The notes under the pieces are model-generated. The model ran no database searches, was not told the origin of the DNA, and worked only from the letters and a program-made list of their open reading frames with translations. This document shows positions 60,968-64,000 of a DNA stretch of 64,000 nucleotides, one piece after another. This DNA comes from Deltaproteobacteria bacterium. Its GTDB lineage: Bacteria; Myxococcota; Kuafuiibacteriia; Kuafuiibacteriales; Kuafuiibacteriaceae. Each line of letters starts with the position of its first letter. The stretch's first letter is position 1. The DNA lies in the NCBI GenBank assembly GCA_040218735.1, contig JAVJQW010000041.1, forward strand, positions 407,801 through 471,800. The letters run 5' to 3'. A program made the position numbers and the translations under genes.

Positions 60968-63247
60968 GTGCGGAGGGTCGCAGCAATCCTGGCGTTGGCG
61001 TTGGCGGTGAGTGCGTGCCGTCGCGCGGACGTGTTGCTGTTCCTCGAGGCCGACCCGACGATGCAGTCCGCGGTCCTCGTCCACGTCGTCGACGACGAGG
61101 CCCACGTCAGCGCGCACACACTCGTCGACGGTGCGCTCGAAGCGACGCTCCTCGACCCGTACATCGGTCGTTACGACGTCGACGTCACGGCGCTGTTCTA
61201 TACGCGCCCGCTCGCTTCGCTCGATCTGATCGCGGGCGACGTACAGACCGTCCCCGACGGGCGCCAGCTCCCCGCGTCGCCTCGAACGATGCAGACGCGC
61301 ATCCGCGGTGAAGACGTCACGCCGTGGGAAGAGATCTCCGCGCTGCCGGACGCCGTCGCGGCGGTGCGGCTGCCCGCGATCCAGAGCGCGTGTGTCGAGC
61401 GCGGCGGGTGTTACGCCTCAGAGACGTCGGGGTGCGTCGTGCCCTGTCCAGCGCCGGCGGCGCCGCTGCCGCCGGTCGACGCGGTGCCCCCCGTGTTGAC
61501 GCCGTGCCCGCCGGGGCAGACGCCGGTGGAGATCGACACCGAGATCGTCGTCTGTGACCCCTTCCCCAACGGGCGATCGATCTGCGCCCCCGGCACCGCG
61601 CACTTCCTCGGCGACGCGGGCTGCACCCGCATCGGACCCGCGTGTCCGTCGGGGCGCTTCCCGGACGTCGAGCCGGGCGCGACGGTCGTCTACGTCGCCC
61701 AGGGGGAGTCGGGCGTGGGCACGCAGGCCTCGCCCTACGGAACGATCACGGAGGCGCTGGCCGACGCGAGCTCGGGCGACGTCGTCCTCGTCGCGGCGGG
61801 GCGTTACACGGAGTCGTTCACGGTACCGGTCGGCGTGACCGTGCGGGGTGCGTGCGTCGCAGAGACGATCGTCGAGACCACCGAGAAGCTCCAGGTCGCC
61901 GGGACGCTGGAGAACCTCCAACTCGATCGTGCGCGCGTCGACGCCGTCGCCCCGGGCGGCAACGGTGCGACGCTCGTGAACCTCGCGATGTATCGCGCGG
62001 CGGGGCAGGCCGTGCGGCTCGACGTGTCGACGGGGCTGCGTCTCGAGAACGTGCTGATCCAGGACTCGGAGGCGGCGGGGATCGTCGCGTGGCGCGGGTA
62101 TGTTTCGCTGCAGCGGGTGATCGTCGCGTCGGCGTCGAGCCACGGGATCCTCGCGAGCGGCGCGCGATACCTCGTGGAGGATCTGGTCGTCGACGGCACG
62201 CGCCTCTCGGACGGCGTGTCGCGTGCGATCGGCGTCCAGGGCGACGCGAGCTTCGAGGGGGATCGGGTGTGGCTCGGCAACGGATTCGACCTCGCGTTGT
62301 TCGTCGACCGCGCAACCGCCGAGATCGACGACGTCGTCATCCGCGACACCGAAGAGTCGGGTCCCGGCAAGCGCGACGGGCGCGGCGTGCTCGTCCAGAA
62401 CGGCGCGGACGTGTTGCTGCGCCGCGCGTGGCTCCACCGCAACACCGGCCACGCCATTCGAAGCCAAGCCGAGGTGACGTTGTTCGACAGCGTCGTCACG
62501 CAGACGGGCGGCGTCAGCGTCTTCGTCGAGAGCACCGGCGCGCTGACGGCCGGGAACGTCGCGATCCTCGACTCGGGCTACCACGCGGTGCAGAGCTCCG
62601 CGGCGAACACCATGCTCGTGAACCTGATCGTCCGCAGGACGGGGTCCACCGGCGTCATGAATCAGCACGGCCACGCGGTGATCGCTTCGGGGCGTGTCTC
62701 GATCAACGTCGCGCGTTTCGAGGACCTCGCGGGGGCGGGCGTCGTCGCGACCGGCACGACCGACGCCCTCGGTGTGTCGGACTTGATGCTGATTCGTCCG
62801 AGCCGCGCCGGGTGCCGCGTGTGCACGGGCGTGTGCACGAAGCTCGCGCTGGGCACCGTGCTCGAGCGCGTCGAGGTGGTCGACGCCGCGGGGATGGCGA
62901 TCGGTCAGATCGATCTGATCGCGGGGAGCGTCCACGCGCGCGACGTGAAGATCTCGAACGTCGGTCGAATCGAGTGTGATCACACGGTGGCGTCGGCGTC
63001 GGGGGGCCTCGGCGACGGCTTCGTCACGCGCGGCGACCTCGATCTCGAACGCTTCGAGATCTCGGGGTGCGTCGGATCGGGCCTGAGCATCGGCGCCTAC
63101 GACGATCCCAGCGGCGTGAAGGTGCGCGACGGCTTCCTGCACGACAACGACGTCGGTATGGCGCTCCTCTTCACGCCGCCCGACGAGGCGAACGTGCTGA
63201 CGCGCGTGAAGCTGGAGTCGAACCGCATCGCGCTCGGCGCGCCGTAG
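60968..63247 (+). CDS. Lipoprotein with Cys-rich region and right-handed beta-helix (DUF1565-like)
   Basis: Lipobox VSAC; VYV...GTQASPYGTITEAL...GDVVLVAAGRY; parallel beta-helix repeats. Confidence 0.8.
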   Translation: MRRVAAILALALAVSACRRADVLLFLEADPTMQSAVLVHVVDDEAHVSAHTLVDGALEATLLDPYIGRYDVDVTALFYTRPLASLDLIAGDVQTVPDGRQLPASPRTMQTRIRGEDVTPWEEISALPDAVAAVRLPAIQSACVERGGCYASETSGCVVPCPAPAAPLPPVDAVPPVLTPCPPGQTPVEIDTEIVVCDPFPNGRSICAPGTAHFLGDAGCTRIGPACPSGRFPDVEPGATVVYVAQGESGVGTQASPYGTITEALADASSGDVVLVAAGRYTESFTVPVGVTVRGACVAETIVETTEKLQVAGTLENLQLDRARVDAVAPGGNGATLVNLAMYRAAGQAVRLDVSTGLRLENVLIQDSEAAGIVAWRGYVSLQRVIVASASSHGILASGARYLVEDLVVDGTRLSDGVSRAIGVQGDASFEGDRVWLGNGFDLALFVDRATAEIDDVVIRDTEESGPGKRDGRGVLVQNGADVLLRRAWLHRNTGHAIRSQAEVTLFDSVVTQTGGVSVFVESTGALTAGNVAILDSGYHAVQSSAANTMLVNLIVRRTGSTGVMNQHGHAVIASGRVSINVARFEDLAGAGVVATGTTDALGVSDLMLIRPSRAGCRVCTGVCTKLALGTVLERVEVVDAAGMAIGQIDLIAGSVHARDVKISNVGRIECDHTVASASGGLGDGFVTRGDLDLERFEISGCVGSGLSIGAYDDPSGVKVRDGFLHDNDVGMALLFTPPDEANVLTRVKLESNRIALGAP

Positions 63248-63260
63248 GCTGGTGCGTTTG

Positions 63261-64000
63261 TCAGATAGCCGGGGTGGGAGTGCCCAGGTCCGGCTTCGCT
63301 TTCGGCGACGGCCGGGGACCTCCCCTCCGGTCAGAAGCCGTTCGTCTCGCCGGGTGTTGCCCCTCGGCTTCGCTGTTTGCCGAGGCGGGCGAGCCGAACT
63401 GATTCCCTACGGAGAGGTCCCCGCCCGCCGCCATCGCTCCGCTTCTCGAGTTGCCTTCGCTCGGCGATCCGATGGGGGGGGTGACCCAACGAGCTTCGCG
63501 CCATCGCGGAAGTGATGCGACGTGCTGCCCAGGCGCTCGCTCCGCTCCGGCGGCGGGCGTGCCGACCTCGGTTCGGCGAGGTTGGCCATCGATCGACACG
63601 GGGACCCAGCGGTCGCGATGGGCAAGGCACGTTGCGCTCGGCGGGGCGGCTCGGCTTTCGGAATCGGCGCGCCCGCCGCCTGCGCTCCGCTATTCGTGTT
63701 CCCTGATCCCAACGCGTAGGACTTCACATCAGCACGAGATCACGACGATGCAGGCGTTGGGATCGGGCAACACGTCCAGCGGAGCGCAGACATCGGGCGC
63801 GGCGATTCCGACAGCCGGACCGCCCCGCCGAGGCGCCCGGGTACTGCCGAGCGTCGCAGCGCGATCCCCGCGCCGGACGGTCGCCCGGCAAGCCGAACCG
63901 AGGTCGCCGCGCCCGATGTCGGAGCGGAGTGGGAGCCTGGGCAGCGCGTCGCATTGGCGGGGCGTTGGGTCGAAGCTCCACGGGTCACCCCACTCATCAG
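63261..64000. repeat. Cluster of three homologous structured non-coding elements (63261-63472 +, 63469-63715 +, 63754-64000 inverted)
   Basis: Units 2 and 3 align without gaps (151/201 identical over 63515-63715 vs 63754-63954, hand count). All three share TGCCCAGG...CT(T/C)CGCT-stem...stem-CGCTCCGCT...GTT(G/C)CC. Confidence 0.85.

Follow-up and report, generated by a model that had tools for sequence, protein, structure and literature searches.

The structured repeats at the end of the window (the whole stretch of 64,000 nucleotides that was analysed) very probably constitute a non-autonomous foldback element of the IS1182 family, in which two left ends of an insertion sequence (IS) meet head to head. 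The window is the final 64 kb of contig C58 in an 11.6-Mb genome with 69% GC (G000), and the contig stops at position 64000, where the window also ends. The element reads IRL-A-B1 up to a central junction and continues, inverted, with B2 and, very likely, past the end of the contig, with A and a second IRL, where IRL is the left terminal inverted repeat and A and B are rod-like hairpin units. We assign a probability of roughly 70% to the full reading, in which this element, devoid of a transposase, was likely moved in trans and its rods likely fold on the antisense strand, probably as single-stranded DNA (ssDNA); it builds on the observed identity of the units with an IS left end, the transposase codons at the center, a common junction, covariation, and strand asymmetry. 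The preliminary description of this DNA had proposed a three-unit array of a free-standing REP/BIME-like repeat or non-coding RNA family. That proposal was wrong, because the units belong to the left end of an IS1182-family element, which is present twice, and because units 2 and 3 represent a single module in two alleles (B1 and B2) of opposite orientation rather than successive array members. The other option it had named, a MITE-like or folded ssDNA element, is the one that we consider right.

The element has landed at the TAG stop codon of a host gene (60968–63247, plus strand) that lies outside it and encodes 759 residues with weak beta-helix/DUF1565 matches. The IS1182-type IRL (63245–63270, plus strand) is damaged; the left end in the window reads TAGGCTGG, intact copies read CTAGGAGGCCGTATCAGATAGCC or CTAGGAGCGTGTATCGGATAGCC, and the repeat is mirrored by the right terminal inverted repeat (IRR) of the intact IS on contig C57. 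CTAG flanks many ends elsewhere and both ends of relatives. Unit A, a rod-like hairpin, occupies 63278–63455 on the plus strand (outer stem 63304–63324/63412–63432) and carries GCTNCGC motifs at 63293, 63367, and 63436, which are GCGNAGC on the minus strand. A spacer that is conserved among copies (63456–63522, plus strand) leads to unit B in allele B1 (63523–63702, plus strand), with a 17-bp stem at 63549–63565/63664–63680 and foot motifs at 63539 and 63684, and this is followed by the beginning of the pre-transposase GATC...TGATC module, here truncated (63703–63715, plus strand). Beyond the deletion junction at 63715/63716, the minus strand carries the first four codons of an IS1182 transposase (GTG AAG TCC TAC, 63716–63727), which are identical to those of the intact gene on C57 and are all that remains of the transposase in the window. 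The complete GATC-N19-TGATC-N9 module upstream of this start codon (63728–63764, minus strand), which we infer to be promoter-like, has a position conserved in related IS1182 elements. It is followed by unit B in allele B2, inverted (63765–63943, minus strand; stem 63789–63805/63904–63920), and by the inverted spacer (63944–64000, minus strand), which is cut by the contig end. It had been suggested that the array might continue past 64000, and the start of contig C55 overlaps the final 141 nt of the window exactly and then runs through inverted A, IRL, and CTAG. The join of C58 to C55 is ambiguous because the end of C60 has the same repeat, but unit A and the inverted repeat very likely follow beyond 64000, and the right IRL of this locus would lie past the contig end, judging from C55 and the interior copies.

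The observation that started the analysis was confirmed in nearly every detail. All six stem arms have the coordinates and letters first given for them, and the 17-bp stem of unit 2 differs from that of reverse-complemented unit 3 by four two-sided changes (positions 2, 4, 5, and 14) and one change of T.G to C-G. The two units have equal spans of 132 nt and lie, as reported, on one diagonal without gaps, but their identity is 73% over 246 nt rather than about 75% over 247 nt. Unit 1 shares its flanks with the other units and differs in its interior. Their non-coding nature is borne out by 1-nt indels among copies. When copy number was checked by BLAST, 29 loci were obtained in G000, including a few short chance matches, and 14 of the 29 are no more than 300 nt away from a contig end. 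The model of unit A matched 24 sequences over its full length, each with 99 bits or more.

The parent element is found on C57, where the sequence of unit 3 (B2), in reverse complement, leads directly into a 490-aa ORF matching the IS1182 model NF033551 with 311.9 bits (cut-off 270) as well as Pfam DUF772 and DDE_Tnp_1_6. This ORF is followed by a right end of ~75 nt that mirrors the IRL and terminates in CTAG, and the IRL and IRR share a perfect 12-nt core, TAGGAGGCCGTA. The C57 transposase is the sole full-length one found in the assembly, with partial copies on C16, C60, and C39. Positions 63716–63764 of the window, when reverse-complemented, reproduce the C57 start region with its four codons. 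In a congeneric genome (G001), a single contig (C1014) carries IRL, A, B, and a transposase with 88% amino acid identity over the 160 residues present. Judged from these sequences, units A and B1 together make up a left end of ~490 nt, that of a CTAG-targeting IS1182-family element, and B2 belongs to a second isoform, whose left end it represents. The enzyme is a DDE transposase and not the HUH/RAYT transposase or reverse transcriptase (RT) for which a look at the neighboring genes had been advised.

Of 80 relatives of the transposase, 46 were examined; the remainder were for the most part additional copies from genomes already represented. Of these 46 loci, 45 have a CTAGG[AG]G end, and the leader from the end to the gene has a median of 83 nt, exceeding 250 nt in four and being longest, at 494 nt, in G001. 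The GATC...TGATC module lies just ahead of the start codon in most of the 19 relatives displayed, and its spacing is the same in the G000 element. Units A and B are situated between the IRL and this promoter-like module and are therefore probably outside the transposase mRNA. An element of the same IS clade in genome G006 (33 matches) has an unrelated insert of ~570 nt at the same place in its left end (L048 and sister loci), which suggests that the site tolerates passengers. By eye, the insert contains a GGTCCC tandem repeat and an antisense ORF, which we take to resemble a four-helix-bundle/IVS protein. CTAG is 4-fold depleted in the genome (1891 observed versus 8148 expected). The loci examined here support the existence of a CTAG-specific class within IS1182. 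The family is heterogeneous in targeting according to a published account (PMC5678879).

Eight head-to-head doublets are present in G000, on C58, C41 (twice), C23, C60, C50, and C64, with a much older one on C20, and in each of the seven recent ones a B1 arm is paired with a B2 arm. Remnants of both transposase starts are kept on C60, C41 (262k), and C50, and deletion derivatives of ~235 nt and ~70 nt also occur. The doublets of the window, C41 (440k), and C23 have one and the same central junction in unrelated surroundings, and this recurrence at three unrelated sites indicates that the doublet has been copied as a MITE; it was likely moved in trans by an intact transposase. No empty site was found: runs X1, X2, and X4 continue into the element, whereas runs X3 and X5 follow the window only as far as 63252. 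Past this point, they carry the beginning of another repeat with many copies, for which G000 has nine similar starts just after TAG/TAA, so that the junction is polymorphic rather than an empty site. At 63252/63253, related strains carry the beginning of a multicopy element different from the one in the window. A separate case on contig C1183 of G001 (L011:1942-2511) has an ORF of 190 aa, without a Pfam or NCBIfam match, between two inverted left ends, like the cargo of a composite element.

Preservation of base pairing, which had been claimed from two units, was borne out above both shuffled and slid controls in alignments of 17 B and 19 A copies. In the B copies, 95.4% of cells pair, two-sided changes are present in 7 of 26 pairs, and the covariation score is 0.210 as compared with 0.085 after shuffling (0/500), whereas slid controls pair in 36–44%. 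For A, the corresponding values are 92.9% of cells and 13 of 36 pairs (0/500), with slid controls at 39–52%; these covariation counts for A and B come from related copies and are not probabilities. The copies are diverged (~56–80% identical within a type), and their stems have been rebuilt from different letters. The interiors of A and B share little sequence, but the span from foot to foot is 140–150 nt in 16 of 16 representatives. Single-unit folding energies within the window have modest z-scores (-0.4, -2.4, and -1.8). Mosaic or recombinant copies with mismatched stem halves on C26, C41 (440k), and C50 have survived, so present copies can do without strict pairing.

The imperfections of the rods are distributed unequally between the strands. 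In all 16 diverged units, mismatches in the outer 36 nt read on the transposase-sense strand are predominantly pyrimidine-pyrimidine (111 Y.Y versus 6 R.R), although the use of the foot motif as an anchor accounts for ~48 of the 111 and the copies are related to one another. A.C outnumbers G.T on the sense strand by 31 to 19 in these units, which amounts to a G.T ratio of 31 to 19 in favor of the antisense strand, and the antisense-strand mismatches are mostly G.A. Particular C.T/C.C mismatches persist in 16 of 17 and 16 of 19 copies at one column each. On the sense strand, GCTNCGC outnumbers GCGNAGC by 44:1 in A and by 34:8 in B (genome rate, 1.25/kb), but among the 20 feet of ten diverged A units, 8 are without the full motif. 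All four bases occur at N of GCGNAGC, and CTNCG is followed by C rather than by G. The RNA cUNCGg loop requires G after cUNCG, so the motif does not fit this loop on the sense strand. Folded as DNA, the antisense strand is better in 19 of 19 A copies, whereas the sense strand is better in 11 of 17 B copies. According to a published report (PMC13037366), GCGNAGC forms a DNA mini-hairpin of exceptional stability, which occurs at priming sites and ssDNA promoters. Taken together, the sequences suggest that the rods were selected to fold on one strand, as ssDNA more likely than as RNA. A hairpin capped by GCTNCGC also occurs in a second repeat family of G000, which is 83 nt long with two hairpins, is bounded by CTAG (e.g., L021:1648-1730 on C57), gives about 57 BLAST matches, and often abuts IS ends or stands in tandem; one copy lies inside a unit A of G001 (L011:3050-3120).

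The strand asymmetry would fit equally well if A and B, with the same IS origin, encoded an outward-facing antisense RNA that runs from inside the transposase start toward the IRL and is stabilized by purine-rich internal loops with tandem G.A. IS10 RNA-OUT is a comparable antisense RNA. Folding of the B alignment as RNA agrees with such a transcript (-44.2 for antisense versus -32.6 for sense), but the A alignment slightly prefers the sense strand (-35.8 versus -33.1), the single GCGAAGC close to the apex of A is more readily explained as a DNA triloop, and neither strand has a sigma-70-like promoter or terminator. We regard an antisense RNA as unlikely. A second explanation, to which we give still less weight, is that A and B are functionless passengers, their paired changes arising by template switching in the arms of a quasi-palindrome, or that an independent REP-like repeat was captured by the IS. 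The mosaic copies are compatible with this, as are diverged copies free of the IS on C4, C21, and contig C18 of G001 and the permissive insertion site seen in G006. Template switching can account for the paired changes, but it should erase mismatches without strand bias, and it does not explain conserved one-sided mismatches such as the persistent C.T/C.C columns or the 111:6 bias. Moreover, B comes after A wherever upstream sequence exists, the exception being one partial B duplicate in G001. On C4 and C21, the spacer and the first letters of B come next, and by this retained A-then-B order the isolated copies look like decayed left ends; with regard to a captured repeat, no unit adjoins a Y1 transposase. 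Another diverged A-B copy, at a contig end of C43 (L026), is interrupted by repeats of AACTGACCCAC, which resemble an IS21-type end. Finally, the rods might act in sense read-through mRNA, as an RNase III site or attenuator that shields the transposase from host transcription entering at the stop codon. This idea agrees with the finding that, for 13 of 25 outer ends, a long, high-GC3 frame directed into the element stops no more than 30 nt away, and it has a precedent in the Correia MITEs cleaved by RNase III (PMC10969869). It is nevertheless very improbable, because sense-strand loops would be rich in C.U/C.C, G.U pairs would be fewer than A.C, and relatives with leaders of 60–150 nt land at CTAG without such rods.

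Among the sequences searched, homologues of A and B turned up in this genus alone (G000 and G001). BLAST of 41 genomes gave G001 only, plus two weak, short matches (38–40 nt), and models R1 and R2 on 20 genomes of the family and R2 on 151 genomes of the phylum gave matches in G000 and G001 only, a result that holds for the 17–130 candidates scored per genome. Seven viral stretches from a pattern scan (R2, best E 0.046) and 80 of 97 metagenome stretches from a pattern scan, tested with R1 and R2 (best E 0.017), matched at chance level. The plasmid and phage collections gave no match, 60 loci of IS1182 relatives, Y1 transposases, and RTs gave nothing with R2, and no homology to the radC/ardC contigs C31 and C44 was found. 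As the preliminary description would lead one to expect, no Rfam family matched at gathering thresholds; six sub-threshold matches, five miRNA hairpins and one hammerhead, were nothing real. A REP/BIME system with a RAYT was rejected, as none of five Y1_Tnp loci carries the units, and so was a retron msr-msd, the unit A model matching none of five RT loci (best E 0.65). An integron attC array was likewise rejected, as the RYYYAAC/GTTRRRY box pair is absent from the units. The genome has an integron integrase above the TIGR02249 cut-off on C28 (134263-135204; L298), with no attC-like sites around it in a simple scan. The five Y1_Tnp-like ORFs (L001–L005; frames of 229–342 aa), of which four are closely related, have long non-coding flanks without A or B units.

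REP, BIME, and REPIN sequences with a RAYT and integron attC sites are dispersed palindromic repeats with bulged stems and one favored strand. The present units resemble them in all these respects, but they have neither an adjacent Y1 transposase nor the RYYYAAC/GTTRRRY pair, and the simple scan around the integron integrase of this genome showed no attC array. The element is like CTAG-type IS1182 elements (NF033551) in its DDE transposase above the family cut-off, short terminal inverted repeats, CTAG ends, type of IRL, and GATC module before the start, and unlike them in its left end of ~490 nt, as compared with the median of 83 nt, with two structured rods of equal span that occur in this genus only. 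No description of an IS1182 left end of this kind was found in the literature covered, most subscription papers being outside that coverage. IS1182-derived hairpin MITEs are already known. MITEPye1 of Paracoccus yeei (PMC11578231) has no ORF, IS1182-type ends, an intergenic location, and long stem-loops and is presumably mobilized in trans, as is proposed here, whereas the present element is ~1 kb long, forms a foldback with arms of ~460 nt that was built from the left ends of two isoforms instead of from IRL plus IRR, and has internal rods with strand-specific conserved mismatches. The GCGNAGC signals of the phage G4 origin, RSF1010 ssiA, and the N4 virion-RNAP promoter (PMC13037366) share with the units the heptamer with its free N, restriction to one strand, and a folded context upstream of a gene on the template strand. 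They differ in that the host here is a chromosomal DDE element, in which the motifs could also form symmetric G.A internal loops. In comparison with ssDNA promoters and priming signals such as Frpo and ssi, strand bias and mini-hairpins are seen in the units, and sigma-70 boxes are not.

The foldback element may have arisen when two isoforms, one of B1 type and one of B2 type, inserted nose to nose at the rare CTAG. The unstable middle would then have been deleted, and the two IRLs that remained would constitute a mobilizable MITE, copied as a unit. A and B may, tentatively, represent a tandem duplicate placed between the IRL and the promoter module. In active ancestors, the rods would have been selected to fold on the transposase template strand: when this strand is single-stranded, at a replication fork or in incoming DNA, rods with G.A-rich loops and GCGNAGC mini-hairpins could form and be recognized by a protein as a signal that tunes how the element is expressed or copied. 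DDE transposition, however, is not known to have an ssDNA step, the relatives manage without the module, and the element of G006 has a different insert at this place, so that the site may simply tolerate passengers. A stronger version, which we think improbable, is that a lineage of DDE ISs has a dedicated, strand-specific module of folded ssDNA (two rods of ~145 nt with GCGNAGC feet) that would switch on transposase expression or second-strand priming when it is single-stranded, e.g., on entering a new cell.

For the biology of the family, the rare target CTAG makes elements pile up, and this yields foldback MITEs. The same pile-up at CTAG is seen in an Acidobacteriota record (L115:900-1210), where an inverted-repeat element of ~220 nt with CTAG-like ends lies against the IRL of a related IS1182. 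As debris, such repeats are of little importance, apart from breaking the assembly. The element looks like ordinary mobile-DNA debris, save for its unusually long left end and hairpins apparently selected to fold on one strand. If the one-strand fold is functional, it would represent an undescribed layer of control in IS1182 ends, and if the ssDNA module is true, it would mean that ssDNA is sensed by an IS family that is thought to work only through double-stranded DNA.
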